DNA of 64,000 nucleotides from assembly GCA_010093995.1 (NCBI GenBank), contig ML992527.1:1-64000 (forward strand), read 5' to 3'. The position numbers and the translations under genes were made by a program. How positions within the stretch are numbered: the first letter of the stretch is position 1; each line of letters starts with the position of its first letter. Origin of the DNA: Elsinoe ampelina (lineage: Eukaryota). This document shows, piece by piece, positions 34,911-45,777 of the stretch. A model generated the notes under the pieces. That model saw only the letters and a program-made list of their open reading frames with translations, made no database searches and was not told where the DNA came from.

Positions 34911-35868
34911 ATTGTGACGATTCGCATAGGTGGATGACGGCGGGTATACATCAAGACCCGGATGGTGGACAAGATGAGTCGAGCTCGGTCTCAGACATCG
35001 GCCTTGCTGTCTCGCACTGGTCGGCGTGGTTTTCTTTGGCGTGCATCATGTGGCTGCATAAAGTGTCTGATGTGTTACATAGAGGACGACACAATGACAG
35101 CAATGGATGGTTTCGTTCACTTTCTGTTGCTCGTGTGTGATTGTGTCTGGGGGCTGGTGGGTTGGATGTTCATTCTTTGCTGCTCAGGATATGTAACCTC
35201 GAACCCATGGTATCGTCACTGACAGACTCGCATAGTGTCTTCACGCTTTCGAACATCATCGCCATCCTGTCGACAACGACTTTATTACTGCTCGCCATGC
35301 CTATTGGTCATACCATCGACAACCTCACTGACGCACCTGACCACGATATCGTTGACGCCCTTGCCCTCGCTGGCGGTCCATCCTCCCTCGATCACGCTCT
35401 CCCCCTGGCCGACATGCTCGACAACCTCTTGACGCCTCAAGACACCTCATGCCGTCTATATCGCCTGATTCGCTATGCCTATGCCAGCCCAGGCTAAGCA
35501 ACATCTCCCTCCCGAGACCACCCTTACCGTCGGACGTACAGTCACCACCCATCTGGGGATCTTCTCGTGGACAATATGTTGTCGGTCTCCCTCGATGCTG
35601 CTAGCCATAGTGGCCGGACCCATCCTGGATGATCAATACTCGAAGCTATCTGGCCCAGCACGCGGCCAAGCCAAACATGTGCTACTCACGCTCAATGGCC
35701 CCCTTTTCCGACGCTGCCGTATCGGCTACTTGCATCCGGTGACATGTGACTCTGGCAGCCGCATCGTTGGCAGACTTACAGTTCACAAAACCGTATGCGC
35801 CCTGCTCTTGTCTTCGCTCTCTCCTCACACACCCAGCCAAATTCATACTAGCCCACTGGATCACCAAC

Positions 35869-36849
35869 ATGTCTACAAACACTCCTGGCAAGGGTTCCAA
35901 GGGGGACAGTACCCCTGAGTCAGAGGATCGCTATCAGGTAATACCATATTGGCCATGTGAGACTTTCACATACTGACTGCCACAGTGTGAAGCAGTCTTT
36001 ACTGGTTCGTCCAGGAGTCCACTCTGCAACAACATCTTCGAGTTCCAGCTTCTCAAGAGTCCCGCTTTCACCGACCCTGCCGAAGCCCACAACAAGTCCC
36101 TGGTCATCAAGTCTAATCACGACTTCACTGTCGATCAAATCGCCATCGACTTCGGGCCATACAAAGGTCGCACGGCAGTCGTCTTCAACCCAAGGCCTGC
36201 CGGTCAGAAGGCATTTCCTTTCATGAAGCTGCCAGCCGAAGTGCGCCGTATGATCTACCGCGAGCTTCTGGTGACCGACATGGAGCTCGAATTCTCCGGC
36301 AGACGTGGCCGCCTCTGCAGTCCCGAAGGCCTAGACGAGATCCACCCGAAAATCCTCCTCGTCAGCAAAGACATCCGCGCAGAGGCACTCGGCATTGCGC
36401 TCGCCGAGAATGGCTTCTCATTCAGCACTACCACCCACGCCGAGCGATTCTTGAGCAGCATCGGCGCTGGAGTCAACCACATCACCCACATCGCCATTCG
36501 ACAGTACTTCTACCAGGAGACCGGGCGACGCATGCTTCGCCAGCTGCCCCAGGCCAGGAACCTGCAGTACATCGCTCTCCCTGGCGAGAACCTCCCGCGT
36601 CACTTCATCTACTACTGCCGTAAGTTCTTGGAGATCAGAGGCGTCAAGTCGGGCACGGGCAGATCGTTCATCAGGACGGAAGTCAATCGTCTGGTGGGCA
36701 TGATTGTTCTGAAGCATAAGTTCGGGCAGTGCTCTGCTACGATTCGTGCTGCGACATCAGCTCCTGGCTGCGACTGTGCGGGCCGCATGAGGCAGCGTCT
36801 GCAGGATCTCAAGGAGGATTTGTTGTTGGGCTATCGCATTTATGATTGA
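35869..36849 (+). CDS. F-box-like family paralogue A, 310 aa (exons 35869-35937, 35986-36849)
   Basis: GPYKGRTAVVFNPRP..FPFMKLPAEVRRMIYRELL; C-terminal CDC motif; phase-0 intron. Confidence 0.8.
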
Positions 36850-37195
36850 GGTGCACGAGGTGTGGAGGAAAGAGCGGTTTCATTGCTTGGGAAGAACGAG
36901 ACTACCAGGAGTGCTGATCGCTGTGACGGATGGAATGCTTTGTTACTAGGATGCAGCAGTCTGTCTGCTCGATATTGAATTGATCATTGCTGTTTATGCC
37001 AGCTCTTGATCTGACCAATGTGAGTTCGACTTGTCGAGATGTGATGCGATCCATGGCTTGCTTGTCGCGCTTGCCCGTGACGCGCTTGCTGCTTCCTTGC
37101 AGCCTTTCACCGCCATTCACATGATTTCCTTCTCATGCTTCTTCTCTGCTTCCCCCGGGCACATAACCTTGTACGAAACATTCACAAAGTCCAGT

Positions 37196-38147
37196 ATGGG
37201 GGCCAAGCTATCGACTGTATTCGGGGACGACCCCGTCGCCACCGCAAGAGCTCTCAAGGTAGCATACCGTGGTTCGAAGAAACTGCTTATGCTGACTTTC
37301 ACAGCATGGCATCCCTTTCACGGGCACATCCAGGAGTCCGCTTGGTAACGTCTTGTTCAACTTCAGACTCACGACCAGTCCGCCTAGCGATGATCCCTCC
37401 TTCAAGTATGCCAGATGCATCTTGGTAGACTCTACTGGCGATTTCATACCAAAACAGGTCACTATTGACTCCGGTCCGTATCAAGGACGCACAGCATTGA
37501 TCTTCGATCCTCGCCCAGCTGGACGTAAGGCCTTTGCCTTCATGGATCTTCCAACCGAGATTCGCCACATGGTCTATAAGAAATTACTGGTCACGAAGTC
37601 AGACATACAGTACCAGGAATACAGTTACGACAACAAGCCACGCGTCACAGGCCTGGACACTATCGAGCCAAACATTGTCATGGTTAGCAAGCATATCCGC
37701 GAAGAAGCATTGGCTGTTATCCTTGGCGAGAACAAATTCATCTTCCCCCAGCCGTCGGACGCCATCCACTTCCTCAAGACAGTCCCTCCTGCAGTGGCAA
37801 TGTTGAAGAACATCACCATCACGCGCGCTCTCACACATCACAAGGCTCGCCCTCTGTTCCGCATGTTGGCCGAGGCGAACAATCTGCGCTACATCAACAT
37901 CGGCAGGCTGGAGCTGCGTGGAGCTGACTTCGCTCTGTTGTGCAGCAGCAATCTGCGGTGCAGGAACCTGAAAGCGATCACTCCGAAGGACACCATTGAG
38001 AAGGAGGTTACACATCTGATAGGCCTGTTCAGACTTATTCATGGCCCATGTCTCAACCCGGTCCGTTGCGACTGCGCGCAGTACTTCGCCCAGCGTATGT
38101 CGGACGTCAGACAGGAGATGCTGATCAAGTGGAAGTATTACAATTGA
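37196..38147 (+). CDS. F-box-like family paralogue B, 301 aa (exons 37196-37258, 37305-38147)
   Basis: GPYQGRTALIFDPRP..FAFMDLPTEIRHMVYKKLL; C-terminal C..CDC; starts MGAKLS. Confidence 0.8.
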
Positions 38148-38564
38148 TAGTTCACTCCAGGAGGAGGTCGTTGGGAATACGGATTGGACAGACAAGGATA
38201 GGAAGGATTGGCTTGAGAGAGATGACACATATGCGATTGTGCGGTCAAGGAGAAAGATCACTCTGATCGTGATGTTCAGGCAATGTTCAGCTTGTCTGCT
38301 AGACCCTGAATCGATCACTGCTGTTTTCACCAGCGCTTCCATGGACCAGACTGCTGTGCATTCAACATGTGAGGAGCATGTGATGTCATTCACTGCGCGG
38401 CTCGCATGTCGCGCTTGCACGTGACGCGCTTGCTGCCTATACTTCAATCGCACCTTCCACTTTTCACATTCACTCCTGGTAGCACCTCATTTGAAACATT
38501 ACACCGCTTGAAGCAAAGCAAACCTCGCCAATCCCAATTCCTCACGCTTTCTGGTAGTTTTGTC

Positions 38565-39626
38565 ATGGCGCCACCTACCAGAAGGAAAGGCGCCCGGCCC
38601 AGGACCTCTGGTCCAGAATCAGCTATCGTGAGTAAGCTACCAAGGGAACTTCACTCACGAGACTAACGTCTTCAGGATCGAGCCCAGGTTACCTACGATG
38701 GCCTCGACAGTCCTCAAGGAACTACCACAGCCATGTCAACAAGCACCATCGCGAAAGCCCAATTCACCTATCGCTTTGGCTCCCTCAACAGCTCATCAGA
38801 AGTCCTTGGTGACTCCAATGTCCAGGCTATCTTCCTCGCTTCCAGTCGCGACTTCACGGTTGAAACTACCACAATCCAAGATGGTCCCTTCAAAGGCCGC
38901 CTGGCTTTCGTCGTCGACCCTCGCCCTACCAGTAAAGACGTCTTCCGTTTTACCGACCTACCACCCGAGATACGCACCATGATCTACGAAGAGCTACTTA
39001 TCCTACCAGTGGTTCACTTTACTCCGTCCAGGAAGAAGGAATGCGGCTTCCAGTCTCGGCAGAAAGGCATCATCAAGAGACTCTCTATCCTCAATGTCAG
39101 CAAATTTGTTCGGCAGGAAGCTATGGCGGTATTTCTTGGTAGGAACAGGCTGCTCTTTGCGGACAACACAATTGCAAACAAGGTGTTCGAGATGTATTCC
39201 CCGTATCAGCTGTGCATTCGCAAGATTTACCTGGGTACCATCCACACTTCCACAGCCAGCAAGACAATGAGGACGTTGGCGAGAATGCACAATCTGGAAA
39301 GCATTGAGATATGGTACTACCGGCTGTCTGCGGGGCGTCCGATTGACTTCAAGATGTGGTTCGTGGAACAAGGACTGGCCAAGAAGAGCGTCAACCGCAA
39401 TACCGTGCTGGAGGCCATCGACCGTCTTCTCGGCCTGCTCGTGGTCCGTACAGGCTGCCGTGAGAAGAGAGGCTGTGGCAGTATTACTACCAGTGGCAGA
39501 GGAGCGTCGAAGGTGAAGTGCGAGAAGTGTGACGGGACCTGCCCATGCCATGAGGCATATCGGAAGCCCTTCGCGGAGCTCAAGACCAGACTTCGAAACC
39601 TCCTCAAGGTCGACGGCAATGAGTGA
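38565..39626 (+). CDS. F-box-like family paralogue C, 337 aa (exons 38565-38627, 38676-39626)
   Basis: GPFKGRLAFVVDPRP..FRFTDLPPEIRTMIYEELL; CEKCDGTCPCH. Confidence 0.82.
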
Positions 39627-40168
39627 ATACTACCAGGGCGAGATGATGCAAGGTCCAACAATTGTTGATGACGAGATTGGTGCTGGCAGTTTTTGAGAGC
39701 ATTTCCTACCAGGTATCAATAGAATTCAATGTTCCCCTGACGATCCTTAAGAGTTGTCAGCTTCGCTCTGGTAATATGAATGAAGGTACTACCAGACCTT
39801 GTAAGCTCAACGGCATGAAGCTCTTCGTCAGCGCTATTTTCTGGTAGTATGAAGTGAGCTACTACCAGAATTGATGTTCTCAATGTCATGCAGCTCGTCC
39901 AACCACTAGACAAGCCCTGGAAACCTCCCCTCTATAGCAGCAGGTCCTACAAAACGATCATGAAATGCTGAGTGCGTCAGTAAGTCTCTCGTCCAATAGG
40001 AAGCATGCAGTGGACTTCACATGTGAAAGTGTGATGTAATATCTCGCTTGCTGCACCTCTTCCCGCTACCCGCTCGCAGCTTCCTGCTCTTGATATCTTC
40101 TCGACCTCCATCACTTTCACACTTTACTTCCTCGCCAACACTCAAAACCACTCATACCACCAGCAAAC

Positions 40169-41246
40169 ACGCCGCCTCCGACAAAGAAGAAAAGGGCCGC
40201 AGCTTCCTCAAGACCTACCAAGGTATGTACCTATCACACCCCCAATTCATGCACCTGCTCACTTTTCACAGCGCTCATCCAAACCTGCTGCCGCCGCTCC
40301 CAAGTTTCACACTACCACCTCAACGACCGCCATCGCCAATGCCACCTTCGCATACCAGTTCGGCTCGACAGATGCTCCGACTCAGCTCGCTGCCGCAGGA
40401 CAGGTCAATGCCCAGTCGATCCTCGTTGCCTCCCAGAACAAATTCGACGTTACGCCATTCACATTCCGAAGTGGACCAATGCAGGGCCAATTCGCCTTGG
40501 TCTTTACGGCACAACCTGCCGACCACGAGATCTTTCGCTTCCTTGACTTGCCGGCTGAGATCCGTGCCATGATACTTGAGAAGCTGGTCATCCATGGTCC
40601 TGAAGCAATAGTCATCCTCAACCTGTCCAACAACCGCGATTGCAAATTCCGAAGCAAGACTTTCGAAGCTGCCAAACTGAGCATCATGGGTGTCTGCAAG
40701 CAGATTCGACAGGAAGCCCTTGCGATGTTCCTTGGCGGCAATACTTTCCGTCTCGGGCAGACAAGTACTGCCTTACATTTCCTGGAGCTCTACGGAGACT
40801 CCACTCAATACTTGCGTACCATAGAGATCGATCATCTCCTCAAGACCGGCAACAACCAGCTCATGAGAGCGCTCGCCAACCTGCCGACCTTGCAGCGTGT
40901 GCGTTTCGACAGGGGGGATCTCAGGAGGCTGTCTGCCGAGCGTATCAGACCATACTTTAGCGAGCAAGGTCTCACCAAGAAGACGGCCCATTCGGACGCC
41001 ATCCTTGCTGGCCTCGACCGCTTCTTAGGTCTCATTGGTGCGATGAACCCGACTCCTTGGCGATCTCCGTGTGACTTCATGTGCCCCCACGAAGATGTGA
41101 ATGGGCTCAACGCTGGCGAAAGGTCTCAGTGCGATGCTTGTCATATGCGGTGCTACTGCCATGCTGCTTTGGAAACAGCGTTGATTGAGCTCCGTGAAGA
41201 TCTCAAGGAGATGCTGAAGATCGAGGAAGAAGATCCCGTGGGGTGA
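40169..41246 (+). CDS. F-box-like family paralogue D; ACG occupies the start position (exons 40169-40222, 40272-41246)
   Basis: GPMQGQFALVF..FRFLDLPAEIRAMILEKL; CDACHMRCYCH; exon 1 (T)PPPTKKKR parallels MAPPTRRK of paralogue C. Confidence 0.7.
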
Positions 41247-41718
41247 TACTGGAGGCCCAAGTAGGAATAGCTGGGTAAAAATTGTGGACGCAATGAGTGG
41301 TGGGCCTGTCGAGAAGTGACCCAAAGATTACCTGATATGCCCAGAGGATCGTTCGTAGCCTACATGGACCTGGAATAAAAGGTAACAGAAGCTTGTTATC
41401 ATGTATACAGTGTCGTATCATTCTTCCAGGGACATGCCAGTGTCCCTCAGGTCGCTGGTCAGACAGGCGTACGGATTAGTGGCTCCAGAGTGCCGTCACA
41501 GTTTCTGCTTCTCCCGTGCTTGCGGATCAGACTTTGCAGTGATAGACCAGCTTCAAAAAGCAAAAAAGAAGATGCCCGTTTCATCGCGCGTACCTCGATG
41601 TCTCTGTAAAACTTCTCCCAGTCACAGCTGTCGCCTTTATGCAACATACATCACCTCGCCAGAGATTCCATTGGGGCTGGCCTGGCCGGGCATCTGGCTT
41701 CTAGACATTCCATCACAA

Positions 41719-42759
41719 ATGTGTCCCAACAGCCGTGCTACCACAGGCTCCAACGTCGGACCGGACCATGTATGCGACCGAGCCCATCCTCCAAAGGAGA
41801 CTTGAATTCTGACCTTCCATAGATCCAATCTCAGCCCAGTCGCAACTGCGCAAGCGACCAGGTTGTCCATAAAGTGACAACAAGGAGTACCGTCAACAGT
41901 GCCTCCCTTGAAATCCAGGTGCTGGAGCCCGAAGAGGACGGAAAGCCCATAGCCTCTGGACAAATCCAGAAGAGGACGATTGTTGTCTCAACCAAACATC
42001 CTGTACTCATACAACCGACGGTCCTGCGAGGAGGAGCATATGATGGACGCTTGGCTCTTGTCTTCGATCCCCTCCCCACCAGCACCTCCCGCCTCATGGA
42101 CCTGCCCGCCGAAGTCCGAGCCATGATCTTCACAGCCCTGCTGGATTCCCACGATTATACGATCTTCTTCCATGCACCCAAGACGAAACTTCGTCTGCCC
42201 GCCATCCTTGACGTTTCCAGGCAAGTCCGGCACGAAGCGCTGCCCCATCTTTTGGCGGGGACGCTTTCTAAGTTTCCTCAAGACCTCCACGGCTCTGCAT
42301 TTCTTCGACCGCTACGGCCACCACCTGCCTTGCGTGCGACATATTTGCGTCGAGGGTTGTCTTGTCTCCCGCGCGACGGACAGGTTCATGAGGACGGTGG
42401 CACGCCTTCCAAATCTCCAGACTCTGGAGGTGGCTCAGTGCTATATCTCGCGTGCTTCGGCGAAGTTGTACAGAGGGTGGTTCCGCGGGCAAGGCCTGGG
42501 CAAGGATCACGTTTCTCCGGGAACCCTTCGCGCCGGGATTGATCGTCTCTTCAGCGTGCTGAGGATCGTCCGTTACTGCTGCAAAGGATGCCCGTCACAG
42601 AGACCGCCCGCTACCAAGTCGAGCGAGACTGGGTGTATGGGCTGTGACGGGTCTTGCGATTGTCACTTTGATTTTTTTCTCCCACCGGGGCGAGCGTCAT
42701 GGGGCGGTCTCCAGAAGGGGCTGGAGGATATGTTGAAGATTGGACCAACTCAGGGTTGA
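41719..42759 (+). pseudogene. F-box-like family paralogue E with a +1 frameshift near 42243-42280 (exons 41719-41769, 41823-42759)
   Basis: GAYDGRLALVFDP..LMDLPAEVRAMIF in one frame; TSTALHFFDRYG..WFRGQGL..CMGCDGSCDCH in the next frame. Confidence 0.72.
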
Positions 42760-43420
42760 CATAGAGGCTAGAAGCGGCACCGAGGTGTATGCGTAGCAGG
42801 TCTGCTGATATGTCGCCACTCAGATAGATTTGGAAGATACTTCGGCGAGTGTAGAAGCGAGAAGGTAGTGGACGAGCAGGCCTGGGCCAATCGCCAGATG
42901 TAATGAGATTGGCCGCCACCATTGCACATCAACGAAGCAATTGTCTGGAATCGATGATTGTATTAAATACGAGGGTGTAATGGGTGCCGCCAACGTGACA
43001 CGATTTGCCACTGCGTCTGTGCTTGCGAACACGGAAAGATTCCGCTTGATGGACCTCAGTCGACTTCGAATGGTTTGAGATGTGGACGTTTTCTTGTCAA
43101 AATACGCTTGCATCATCAAGAGGTGTGCGACTTGATATGTGATCTTGTCAGGCAGATGTAGATCCATGTGAGCTACGTTTGGACGACGTGAAATGCACGC
43201 CGTGGATATGTAATGCTGACTACCAGGCCTGCAGCGCCTTCAGTGACACCCATCTCCAGAAGTGTCTCTTCTTGACACTCGGACCTGCAAGTGTGCAAGC
43301 GAACATCCATTTGCCCAATCAACCTCTGCGCTTCCTAGAGGCTGGTCTTTCTTTGCGCCTTCCCTCACCCGTGTCAGGACTTCCAGTGGTAAAGTGCCAG
43401 CTTCGCCACGGCCGCACCTC

Positions 43421-44116
43421 TCACTCAAGTCTCAGTAGTCGCCCCATTTCCTTTTTGATGGCTGGCAACTGAGTATGGCACCTACAACTGCAGACTGACC
43501 TGTCACAGTCCCTTCCGCGTCCTCGACATGTCCGGATCCTCTTACAGATCTTGATAGTCCTCATCAAACGCTCCAGACGTTCTTCGACCGCTTCTCTACC
43601 CGCCGTCCTGACTCCCAATCTCTGCTTAGTGAACCAAGGCCGGAGCAAAGGGCAGATGTTGACACCGAGATCGCTCTTCCTGATTCGCAGTTCGGAGAGG
43701 TACTCGGCTTGAGCAAGGACACACATGATTTTCGCAAGAGGCTGTACGTCGGTGAGTCGAACATGTACCTTTTTGATATTACCGATCTCGCCGCCAATGC
43801 GGGTACCGAAATCCAGCAAGGCATCGGCCTTCTCAAAAGCAAATATGTTGTCCCCCATGACCATCGGGGTTGTTTCTTGATTGATCTGCCTGTTGACCAG
43901 GAGCAGAGAGAAGGTGAACTTGTCGGTAAAGCGCTCTAGGATCGTGCAGAGCTCTGTCCGGGGGTCTTTTCGGCGGCCACCTCTGATGTGATAGAACCGA
44001 ATGATGATATTCCTTGGGAGAAGGTGACGGTAGATCATAAAGCGAAGCTCAGTAGGTAGGTCAAGGAAACGGAAAACACCAGTCGGCCTGGACTCTGATT
44101 TCGAGGTGGCGGACAT
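43421..44116 (-). CDS. F-box-like family paralogue F, 231 aa, inverted, lacking the N-terminal domain
   Basis: MSATSKSESRPTGVFRFLDLPTELRFMIYRHLL..WFTKQRL..CSCRCH. Confidence 0.78.
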   Translation of the reverse strand: MSATSKSESRPTGVFRFLDLPTELRFMIYRHLLPRNIIIRFYHIRGGRRKDPRTELCTILERFTDKFTFSLLLVNRQINQETTPMVMGDNIFAFEKADALLDFGTRIGGEIGNIKKVHVRLTDVQPLAKIMCVLAQAEYLSELRIRKSDLGVNICPLLRPWFTKQRLGVRTAGREAVEERLERLMRTIKICKRIRTCRGRGRDCDRSVCSCRCHTQLPAIKKEMGRLLRLE

Positions 44117-44743
44117 CTCGGTTGTGGTAGTATATCGATGTGGAACTACCAGACACAGAGCGCAGAGGTCGATACAATGCAGTGAAAACGAAGCGAGATG
44201 CAAGGTAGAGTATGAAGAGCTCGTGAAGATGAGCAAGATTGTGGTAGTAATGCGGTACGGGAATTACCAGGCACTGATTGCAGATGTTGATCTCAAGTAG
44301 TGAGTGGGACCGCTGAGCATTGGAGTAGATTTGAAGTGACCGCGAAGGTGAGCAAGGTCGTAGTAGGAGACTGATGCGAGACTACCAGGTACTGAACGTG
44401 AAGGCGAGATGACGCGGTGACATAAACCAGGAATCATAGAGAGAGGAATTATCAGGCGAGCAGTGAGGTAAGTCGTGAAGTAGTCGTGAAAGTGGGTAAG
44501 GTTGTGGTGGGGCGTTGAGGCCTGACTACCAGATGCTCAACGTGAAAAGTGATATCACATAGCGGAGGTAAACGAAGAACGGGGTGAGGCGAGCTGAAGA
44601 GTATGTGGTGGAACAAATCAAAAGATATGTTCCTTCCGAGCTTGCTTGTTCGTCCCCAAGGGTTAGATAAGTCAGCAAGTGATTCAGTCTATCTCGTTAT
44701 TCAGCATGCACATACTCAAAAGGGCCGCATTCAAGTCGTGCAG

Positions 44744-45183
44744 CAAAAGAGTTCGGACCCAGTCGGGTCCTACATGGTTGATAAGCAGATGCAACAGCTC
44801 AAACCTCGGCGAACCAAATCGTCCAACCACTCGGCTATCCGAGGAAGTCTAGGCCAGTTTACAAGGTGCGAAAATTGTCATGGTATGTGAAGCTGGCCAG
44901 TGACTTGATTGTGACACGCGTTTCTGTTCCTGCCATGATATGCGCCGATACCGACATCTTGCTGCGCCTAAAATGTGGCAGCAAGGCATGAATTGCGCGA
45001 GATCTGACATGAGCTTCAGGATACTTAATCAGACTTGCATATCTTCCTTTCTCTCCTGCACCACACATCACCGTTCTGATGGCAGAACTCGACTCCCACC
45101 CAAACTCACTCACCGGAGCACGGCGCAAAAATCCTACGGCCAAACGAGCGACAAAAGAGTTCGGACCCGGACGGGTCCTACAT
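44744..45183. repeat. Two 32-bp direct repeats (44744-44775, 45152-45183), each with a GGACCC-N4-GGGTCC hairpin
   Basis: CAAAAGAGTTCGGACCC[AGTC/GGAC]GGGTCCTACAT; the only mismatches are in the loop. Confidence 0.85.
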
Positions 45184-45227
45184 CTCCCCGCTGTTATCAA
45201 CTTGTGATAACAGCAGCCAGTCCATCC

Positions 45228-45350
45228 GAGAGAGTCGATCCGAGAGAGTCCATCCAAGATAATCCAGAATAGTGGTATCACATGCACATCCATCCATGAG
45301 AGTCGATCCAAGGTAGTCCAGAGCAGGAGCAGCAACGGTATCACATGCAC
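45228..45350. repeat. Imperfect tandem duplication
   Basis: GAGAGTC(C/G)ATCCAAG.TA.TCCAGA...GGTATCACATGCAC occurs twice, with extra GAGAGTCGATCC units. Confidence 0.7.
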
Positions 45351-45777
45351 GTGGAAAGTCGGAAGAAAGTTAGGAAAGTGTTTGAGGAAAGTCAGAAGAG
45401 GTTAGACTGAAGGAAAGAAATTGAACAGAAAGAAATCGCACAACCACTTTACCATTGGTCCCTCCCCCGAAGGGGAGGGCCGCTAGATTCCACGGCGAGA
45501 ATATTAATATACCATGTGCTTCTGGGGCGGTGACTTGGTTGTGACATCAGAGTGGCTTGGTGCTGTCACATGCTCTGGTGTCTTGCTGTGCATCGAAACG
45601 TGCTGAATGGTATGGAAGTTTTTGCGACTCACTTGACACCACCTCACATATCCACCTTAAACCTGCAGCCTCTACACCCATCTCATCACAACATCATGAT
45701 CAAAAGCGCCACGAACGCCTCAACAAAGAAACACATCCATTCCCACCAAATCCCTCCTCTCCCTCGCCACCTGGTCT

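Follow-up and report, generated by a model that had tools for sequence, protein, structure and literature searches.

A strict CTACCAG word concentrated at two genes of a 2EXR paralogue island in Elsinoe ampelina, tentatively read as a recognition-site array

The 64,000-nt stretch of Elsinoe ampelina DNA analysed here (the window) carries an island of six 2EXR/F-box-like paralogues (Pfam), G1 to G6, in which the 7-mer CTACCAG (CTGGTAG on the opposite strand; "the word") recurs. The genes are as follows:

36112..36849, + strand: G1, 2EXR-family paralogue (Pfam 2EXR/DUF7730 below the curated cut-offs; paralogue alignment); homology from 36112, first ATG at 36223
37196..38147, + strand: G2, 2EXR paralogue (Pfam), with exon 1 at 37196-37258, an intron at 37259-37304 and exon 2 at 37305-38147; no exact word
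38565..39626, + strand: G3, 2EXR paralogue at the centre of the word cluster (Pfam 2EXR and DUF7730 above cut-off)
40293..41246, + strand: G4, 2EXR paralogue (Pfam; paralogue alignment); no exact word
41874..42759, + strand: G5, 2EXR paralogue with a frameshift near 42250 and two overlapping frames; no exact word
43421..44118, - strand: G6, 2EXR paralogue (Pfam; alignment); coding sequence without the word

The G2 intron is supported by an RNA joint with GT..AG ends (run X3) and has the donor GTAGCA; its frame was checked by eye. We infer that G3 consists of exon 1 (38565-38627), a + strand intron (38628-38675) and exon 2 (38676-39626), a model in which exon 1 has 21 codons, as in the RNA-supported exon 1 of G2; the predicted + strand intron was not seen in the RNA contigs, which have a - strand intron there instead. 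G4 has no in-frame start codon upstream of its homology start, and the RNA contigs show no indel at the G5 frameshift. Protein identity between the paralogues is 20-40%, and at the DNA level only G1-G3 are detectably similar.

An exact recount found 23 CTACCAG/CTGGTAG sites in the window, 17 of them within 36510-44526 and the other six at 1100, 12860, 16074, 48193, 59092 and 60878. The earlier note on this DNA had listed 17 sites in the island, with about six elsewhere and about one expected by chance; every one of its 17 coordinates was recovered, the sites elsewhere number exactly six, and the outside rate predicts 1.0 site for the island (36001-44700), an enrichment of ~18-fold. CTACCAG is the most enriched of all 7-mers in this interval. 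Across 100 dinucleotide shuffles of the whole window the number of sites averaged 5.36 and peaked at 13, and none reached 23. The earlier note had also allowed that the enrichment might be lost under a local higher-order background: it holds under island-trained Markov models of order 1, 2 and 3, which expect 0.38, 2.39 and 3.09 sites against the 17 found, and orders 4 and 5 expect 8.9 and 15.4, values that are high because these models are trained on the same enriched sub-words. The enrichment of CTACCAG is thereby confirmed as real.

The enrichment is focal: it lies on and around G3 and beside G6, and does not extend over the island as a whole. Two of the positions concerned are:

38476..39868: core cluster of 1393 bp, home to 11 exact words out of 17 (38476-, 38551-, 38575+, 38926+, 39003+, 39487+, 39630+, 39706+, 39789+, 39841- and 39862+)
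36902..36908, + strand: word copy 53 bp past the G1 stop codon, where RNA contigs span 36551-36967

When 23 sites were placed at random in 200,000 trials, a 1393-bp span never held more than 8. The G6 flanks hold four of the 17 copies and G1 with its 3' side two, and the exact word is absent from 39869-43219, a stretch of 3.35 kb that contains G4 and G5. The copies at 36902 and 38476 (the latter read on the opposite strand) have CTACCAGGAGTG in common. By arithmetic on our gene models, spacers hold ~3.6 copies per kb and genes ~0.9. The + strand carries 14 of the island copies and the - strand the other 3 (binomial P=0.013), a split of ~10:3 (P=0.09) once copies sharing a local duplication are removed. 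It had been proposed that CTACCAG marks the paralogue island by a sequence-specific signal; the signal stands as the best reading, and the marking of the whole island does not, given the concentration at G3 and the G6 flanks. Nor does the word cluster at 26 metagenome loci with distant 2EXR relatives, where 21 copies are spread over ~126 kb.

These positions also bear on the idea, likewise put forward earlier, that the 2EXR genes owe their tandem duplication to a recombination or rearrangement signal. At least one copy is present in five of the seven non-coding stretches of the island (counted on our gene models), as such a signal would suggest, but the word is missing between G4 and G5 and upstream of G1, the majority of copies are heaped at one gene, and the distant 2EXR loci lack clustering. 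Moreover, the low protein identity and the restriction of DNA similarity to G1-G3 mean that the duplication junctions are ancient and can no longer be placed, whereas the word copies are exact. We regard this origin as highly improbable.

The copies within G3 indicate that the word is present there beyond what the protein requires. At G3, the copies at 38575, 38926, 39003 and 39487 are all in the sense orientation CTACCAG. The G3 coding sequence contains three words against 0.157 expected from its protein and local codon usage (P=0.001), and CTACCA six times against 0.52 expected (P<0.0004); codon choice in G3 is thus biased towards the word. The coding copies occupy three reading frames, none of those in G3 breaks the frame, and the nearest named relative of G3, from Elsinoe fawcettii (41% identity), has different residues at the three coding sites. 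The earlier claim that protein homology is not the cause is borne out by the three frames and by the excess in G3. That chance, base composition or shared protein motifs produced the cluster is compatible with individual copies: the lone coding copy of G1, at 36510, fits its protein and codon usage (0.34 expected, P=0.32), and the copy at 38926 encodes P-T-S, which is common to G5, where CCACCAG stands at the homologous place. As a source of the whole cluster, this explanation is refuted, with 12 of the 17 copies non-coding on our gene models and the shuffles, the 7-mer ranking, the Markov models, the codon test and the random placement all contrary to it; the probability that we leave to it is negligible.

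The word is slightly longer than seven letters. In 11 of the 17 island copies it reads ACTACCAG, in agreement with the fuller sequence that the earlier note gave for many of them; the preceding base is A or C in 15 of 17 island copies and the following base A or G in 14 of 17, against 2 of 6 outside. The extended form is therefore [A/C]CTACCAG[A/G], or CTGGTAG followed by T or G on the opposite strand. The word is also strict, with the enrichment falling from 18-fold for the exact form to 1.5-fold with one mismatch and 0.9-fold with two. Past the core, the flanks are unrelated between copies, and alignment with masked flanks found similarity only inside two local unit families.

Some copies form inverted pairs. 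Five pairs of the form CTGGTAG-N14-17-CTACCAG, involving 7 of the 23 exact sites, were found against 0.12 expected, with the inverted partner 21-24 nt upstream; folding beats shuffles in only four of eight inverted pairs. Direct neighbours recur at spacings of about 73-83 bp. The pairs and local units discussed below are:

38551..38581: inverted pair CTGGTAG-N17-CTACCAG, lying across the presumed start codon of G3; fold -15.5 kcal/mol, z = -3.1
39683..39712: inverted pair CTGGCAG-N16-CTACCAG; hairpin no better than shuffles; its right arm serves as alternative acceptor for a - strand intron
39767..39899: two tandem 60-nt units, spacing 73 bp, identity 73%
39768-39795 and 39841-39868: inverted pairs in these tandem units; hairpin z-scores -2.4 and -4.6
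44086..44592: series of four units in loose tandem upstream of G6, their words 118, 118 and 144 bp apart (alignment)

On the + strand, the G6-upstream units read GTGGTAG-like, then N15-16, then CTACCAG, with the exact word at 44146, 44382 and 44526 and TTACCAG at 44264; units 3 and 4 are 72% identical over 71 nt (blastn). Across these units the right CTACCAG arm is preserved and the left partner arm decays. Small local duplications gave rise to a minority of copies, no more than 6 of the 17.

These units speak for a neutral origin, in which small tandem duplications and fold-back template switching amplified a chance copy into an array with no function: the short inverted partners at a fixed offset are the expected product of template switching, and the recurring direct spacings fit as well. 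However, most copies lie beyond the duplications, among unrelated flanks, and the G3 coding copies stand in three frames with no surrounding duplication. The one-mismatch forms are hardly enriched, which indicates that the copies are not decaying like neutral DNA. We consider a neutral by-product unlikely, while leaving it an appreciable share of the probability.

The pairs also recall the footprints or miniature remnants of a locally hopping cut-and-paste transposon, since the copies are locally clustered and short inverted pairs could be two retained terminal repeats. Against this, no target-site duplication was seen by reading beside any of the eight pairs, there is no shared internal sequence, no transposase was found in a Pfam scan covering 48 of the 109 window ORFs of at least 130 aa, the coding copies stay in frame, and the left arm is variable where the right arm is exact. 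The unrelated flanks tell likewise against the footprint of a mobilising element that had been suggested earlier, and we rate this origin as very unlikely.

The RNA contigs include spliced transcripts from the strands opposite G3 and G6, in which the word is used as an acceptor, stands beside a donor or lies at a branch site. The introns concerned are:

39746..39797, - strand: intron of 52 nt beginning GT-CTGGTAGTA (GT-CTGGTAG); RNA joints in X3 and X5
39706-39797, - strand: alternative form of 92 nt, ending on the word (...CCTGGTAG at the boundary); RNA joint in X4
38608..38658, - strand: intron of 51 nt (GTGAGT...CAG) in the G3 5' region, carrying the one-mismatch form CTTGGTAG; RNA joint in X3 only
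39968..40020, - strand: intron of 53 nt in the G3-G4 spacer; RNA joint in four of four runs
43168..43234, + strand: intron antisense to the G6 side, ending ...GCTGACTACCAGGCCTGCAG at the boundary, with the word at 43220 overlapping a branch-site-like CTGAC; joint in X3 only (side 30; between: not known)
43435..43508, + strand: intron in the G6 coding region, antisense, with donor GTAGTC; joint in X3 only (side 30)

GTAG-type donors are present in two of the seven RNA-supported intron forms (six introns, one with an alternative acceptor), and their hexamers are identical to those that follow CTG in five copies of the word.

One explanation for this association is that the words are left over from a family of intron-like repeats, resembling introner-like or internally symmetrical introns, with the ends CTG/GTAGTA and TACTACCAG (the latter closing the intron), so that single words and palindromes would be collapsed elements or solo ends. 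The RNA-supported 52-nt intron is largely one palindrome (39768-39795), and the G6-upstream units read donor, branch site and terminal CTACCAG on the + strand; when donor, branch site and acceptor are considered together, three of the 17 copies qualify as complete 3' ends of introns. The other 14 fail this test, however, the palindromes are 28-31 bp, too short for an intron, and the G3 coding copies leave the reading frame uninterrupted. Fungal introner-like elements are indeed symmetrical (PMC8469720). They are defined by similarity over their full length, where only 8-9 letters are common here. We consider this origin distinctly unlikely.

Our preferred reading is that the CTACCAG set is an array of recognition sites for one sequence-specific, putative factor, which we put forward tentatively, with a confidence that stops a little short of even; as the best reading, the array is neither a paralogy signal nor a duplication signal. 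A strict, oriented word would recur as a same-word array across G3, its surroundings and the G6 flanks, where a putative trans-acting factor would read it. We lean slightly towards reading in RNA or during transcription over reading in duplex DNA. The sequence CTG/GTAG has both GT and AG and resembles two donors in use in this fungus, GTAGCA and GTAGTC. On this ground the array may recruit U1 or the spliceosome, or act through a dedicated RNA-binding protein, and could so set the fate of transcripts bearing the word. The G3 sense strand bears CTACCAG and the G6 sense strand CTGGTAG, such that orientation does not track the annotated genes, and an RNA-level reading consequently requires that - strand RNAs are the relevant ones; such RNAs are shown as carriers for 38608-40196 only. 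The fixed-offset inverted pairs and the higher density in spacers would fit a dimeric DNA-binding protein equally well.

If the recognition array is real, it would define a regulator and a target set in a crop-pathogenic fungus, with a signal strong enough to shape codon choice within a gene. A word that has GT and AG and lies at real splice sites would also provide a test case for the control of RNA fate by splice-signal mimics in filamentous fungi, and the identity of the target genes as rapidly diverging members of a tandem family would tie the signal to keeping such families in check. A bolder form, which we hold to be unlikely, is that the strict 8-letter, 5'-splice-site-like CUGGUAG plus U or G is a genome-wide tag on selected fast-evolving members of tandem families, bringing U1, the spliceosome or a dedicated RNA-binding protein to the transcripts that bear it. 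It would thereby decide their fate, which might be retention, decay, silencing or word-to-word splicing.

Among known systems, homotypic clusters of transcription-factor sites and binding arrays like that of Su(Hw) in gypsy have many copies of a short word within a few hundred bases to 1-2 kb. The island resembles them in this respect, in its unrelated flanks, and in the position of its copies partly in promoter-like spacers and partly in inverted pairs at about two helical turns; it differs in that degenerate variants are hardly co-enriched, in its apparent strand bias, and in the extension of CTACCAG copies into coding sequence at synonymous positions. Likenesses to MITEs or excision footprints are the short inverted repeats and their local clustering, but target-site duplications, internal similarity and an element with such ends are all absent from the window. 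The tandem duplication of a mini-exon with a short intron is matched by the four G6-upstream and the two post-G3 units, with their palindromes and intron-like signals, although it covers at most the copies in local duplications and leaves the coding copies unexplained. The introner-like elements and internally symmetrical (stw)introns of Hypoxylaceae have whole-length similarity and terminal repeats of 45-55 nt (PMC8469720); symmetrical sequences able to form hairpins, located at or within genuine short introns and with complementary donor-like and branch-like arms, are found here too, with arms of 7-11 nt and most copies outside introns. In fission yeast, arrays of the DSR hexanucleotide (UNAAAC) are reportedly read by the YTH protein Mmi1 and act as a tag on the RNA of selected genes (PMC3352096), which leads to exosome decay. 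The word differs from UNAAAC, and CTACCAG is uniform on the + DNA strand and opposite relative to G3 and G6, an arrangement that would give one orientation per transcript only if the - strand RNAs carry it. What is common to both is a short word repeated in a transcribed region, coding sequence included, beyond the need of the protein, as in G3, where RNA contigs cover the region; if the genome-wide tag exists, it would be a new counterpart of the selective-removal system of DSR and Mmi1.

Exact counting finds 23 copies of the heptamer CTACCAG or its reverse complement CTGGTAG in the 64-kb window, compared with a mean of 5.36 and a maximum of 13 in dinucleotide shuffles of the same sequence. 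The earlier note had claimed that the word is enriched across the island of paralogues and had listed 17 sites; all 17 coordinates are correct, and the remaining copies in the window number exactly 6. When the island (36001–44700) is compared with the remaining sequence, CTACCAG ranks first in 7-mer enrichment (17 copies versus 1.0 expected). A local higher-order background had been set beforehand as the refuting test, and the enrichment survives it at Markov orders 1, 2, and 3 trained on the island (0.38, 2.39, and 3.09 copies expected, respectively); thus, the observation stands. Orders 4 and 5 predict 8.9 and 15.4 copies, but these expectations are circular because the models are trained on sub-words of the same sites. 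The word is strict: enrichment within the island is 18-fold for the exact form, 1.5-fold with one mismatch, and 0.9-fold with two. The preceding base is A or C in 15 of the 17 island copies, which on the opposite strand share an eight-letter form, CTGGTAG and then T or G, and the following base is A or G in 14 of 17 (2 of 6 outside the island), with the three exceptions all located within the second exon of G3, the paralogue at the center of the cluster. Beyond these immediate neighbors the flanks of the copies show no relation, so that the copies do not represent fragments of some longer repeat that has decayed. AGGCCTG ranks third in 7-mer enrichment within the island (10 copies versus 3 outside) and sometimes adjoins the main word (CTACCAGGCCTG at 43220; GAGGCCTGACTACCAG at 44518).

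Pfam and alignment assign the six genes arrayed in tandem in the island to the fungal 2EXR (F-box-like)/DUF7730 family.

Paralogues of the island and word copies at its two ends
36112–36849: G1, 2EXR-family paralogue
37196–38147: G2, 2EXR-family paralogue
38565–39626: G3, 2EXR-family paralogue
40293–41246: G4, 2EXR-family paralogue
41874–42759: G5, 2EXR-family paralogue, frameshifted
43421–44118, minus strand: G6, 2EXR-family paralogue
36510 and 36902: word copies at G1
43220, 44146, 44382, and 44526: word copies flanking G6

The proposal that the word marks the island as a whole is not borne out, as its distribution is uneven and concentrated on and around G3, where 11 of the 17 copies lie between 38476 and 39868; random placement of 23 sites (200,000 trials) never put more than 8 in a span of that length. 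By exact count there are no copies in 39869–43219, an interval that contains G4 and G5 in their entirety. Under our own gene models, 5 copies are coding and 12 are non-coding. A Pfam scan that covered 48 out of 109 open frames (130 aa or longer) showed housekeeping genes in the window outside the island and identified no transcription factor or transposase beside it.

Several other features of the island were recorded. The family homology of G5 requires a frameshift near 42250, and RNA contigs span the gene (41874–42759) without an indel; G5 therefore looks like a transcribed pseudogene. The frame of G4 stays open, with homology to the other paralogues, far upstream of the first start codon (40035–40478), and this upstream part holds no in-frame ATG, GTG, or TTG, so that either a 5′ exon is absent from the gene model or the gene is decaying. 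A conserved block of ∼32 nt, palindromic internally around CGTGACGCG, occurs at 37061–37092 and 38405–38436, within a homologous stretch of ∼150–200 nt (72% identity) upstream of G2 and G3; it is likely to be a shared promoter element. At 45204–45320, in the spacer between the upstream region of G6 and a Mn-superoxide dismutase gene, there is a short tandem repeat (14-nt unit, ∼3 copies), with a related copy 54 nt downstream.

The coding copies occupy three different reading frames. When each protein was back-translated using codon frequencies drawn from seven long and conserved reading frames in the window, G3 was found to carry 3 copies versus 0.157 expected (P = 0.001), and 6 occurrences of CTACCA versus 0.52 expected. 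These copies exceed what protein and codon usage predict, so the synonymous choices in G3 lean toward the word. The single coding copy in G1 fits chance (P = 0.32), and the coding sequences of G2, G4, and G6 have none. The protein collection offered only one relative of G3, labelled Elsinoe fawcettii, with different residues at each of the three coding sites; this is uninformative at such a distance (41% identity).

Inverted pairs are also in excess: five pairs are formed with a CTGGTAG partner arm (at most one mismatch) lying 21–24 nt upstream, versus 0.12 expected, and they take in 7 of the 23 exact sites. Allowing two mismatches, the island has eight pairs (38551, 39683, 39768, 39841, 44124, 44241, 44360, and 44504). 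Only four of these eight fold better than shuffled sequence, and in four units upstream of G6 the partner arm decays while the CTACCAG arm is kept; therefore, the hairpin is not the conserved unit and was ruled out as such. Local duplication explains no more than 6 of the 17 copies, through two 60-nt units at 39767–39899 (73% identity) and four loosely tandem units at 44086–44592. Masked-flank alignments revealed no similarity among the remaining sites, the high scores of neighboring sites being disregarded because their windows overlap.

Four public runs from three studies supplied contigs, guessed to represent RNA, that agree with the window except at position 42113 within G5, where those of runs X5 and X6 (two studies) carry an A-to-G change that is probably a strain polymorphism. 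No contig in any of the four runs covers 44127–45000, which holds most of the units upstream of G6. The contig joints in the island carry canonical intron ends.

Introns seen as contig joints
37259–37304, plus strand: G2 intron, donor GTAGCA
38608–38658, minus strand: intron opposite G3
39746–39797, minus strand: intron opposite G3, with an alternative acceptor at 39706
39968–40020, minus strand: intron opposite G3, joint present in all four runs
43168–43234, plus strand: intron opposite G6, weaker joint (one run, 30-letter sides)
43435–43508, plus strand: intron opposite G6, weaker joint (one run, 30-letter sides), donor GTAGTC

A 7.6-kb contig of run X3 (36000–42956) contains introns of both strands, and the island is therefore transcribed both ways, with overlapping RNAs. 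Over nearly the same 50 bases at 38608–38675, mirror-image intron signals (GTGAGT…CAG) are legible on both strands; the minus-strand version (38608–38658) is spliced in an RNA contig, and the plus-strand version (38628–38675) would, by analogy with G2, be the intron that G3 needs. A leader intron of G3 is also predicted, at 38479–38557.

The word itself participates in splicing. The minus-strand intron with the alternative acceptor has a 92-nt form with a 3′ end that reads ...CCTGGTAG|, i.e., on the word, and a 52-nt form that starts GT-CTGGTAGTA and is mostly one palindrome; in the 43168–43234 intron the word overlies a branch-site-like CTGAC. Read on the other strand, the word is CTG|GTAG, holding both GT and AG, and in five copies CTG is followed by a hexamer (GTAGTC in four, GTAGCA in one) identical to one of the two GTAG-type donors seen in RNA. 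As a general account of the copies, an intron 3′ end is ruled out, since only 3 of the 17 pass a full donor, branch, and acceptor test. Splice signaling is thus a property of the word that does not explain the array.

Repeat-induced point mutation is ruled out, given that GC content is steady across the island (0.51–0.54) and such mutation would not consistently produce this word. The primer-binding site of an LTR element is ruled out as well: only six letters fit a tRNA 3′ end, and the next bases differ. None of the sites of Ace2/Swi5, PacC, or Reb1, nor the plant MYB AC elements, is known to fit the full word. Twenty-six metagenome loci encoding distant 2EXR relatives (∼126 kb; two look like duplicates of each other) contained 21 copies, with none at 16 loci and no clusters at any; the word is therefore not characteristic of the family. 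A search of 35500–45500 against Rfam returned only a sub-threshold chance match (HOTAIR_3, E = 0.27). Literature searches with the word and its extensions yielded only primers and unrelated uses and, in the library searched, no paper naming it as a motif; a search for Elsinoe genome papers returned nothing relevant. Chance, composition, paralogy, and a decayed repeat each fail on the points tested, as do the transposon footprint and the duplication-driving signal suggested in the earlier note.

This leaves a word that is strict and oriented and that has been either preserved or recently created at a small number of genes. The simplest reading of this pattern, held tentatively, is an array of putative recognition sites, in which one factor would recognize the copies. 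Such a factor may read duplex DNA, in keeping with the greater density of copies in spacers and with inverted pairs spaced approximately two helical turns apart. We slightly favor recognition in RNA or during transcription, which is consistent with the strand bias of the copies (14:3, P = 0.013; ∼10:3, P = 0.09, with duplicated copies removed), one-sided conservation in the pairs, the strictness of the word, the copies at synonymous positions, and a word that resembles splice signals and serves as such. However, under recognition in RNA a single orientation rule holds only if the carriers are minus-strand RNAs, which is shown for 38608–40196 alone; these carriers would be the RNA antisense to G3 and, at G6, the mRNA including its leader and trailer.

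Symmetrical introner-like introns, as described in PMC8469720, resemble the one palindrome-bearing intron of the island, although introner-like introns require full-length similarity, which the island copies do not have. The nearest known kinds of array are homotypic binding-site clusters and, in fission yeast, the word arrays of the DSR/Mmi1 system (PMC3352096).
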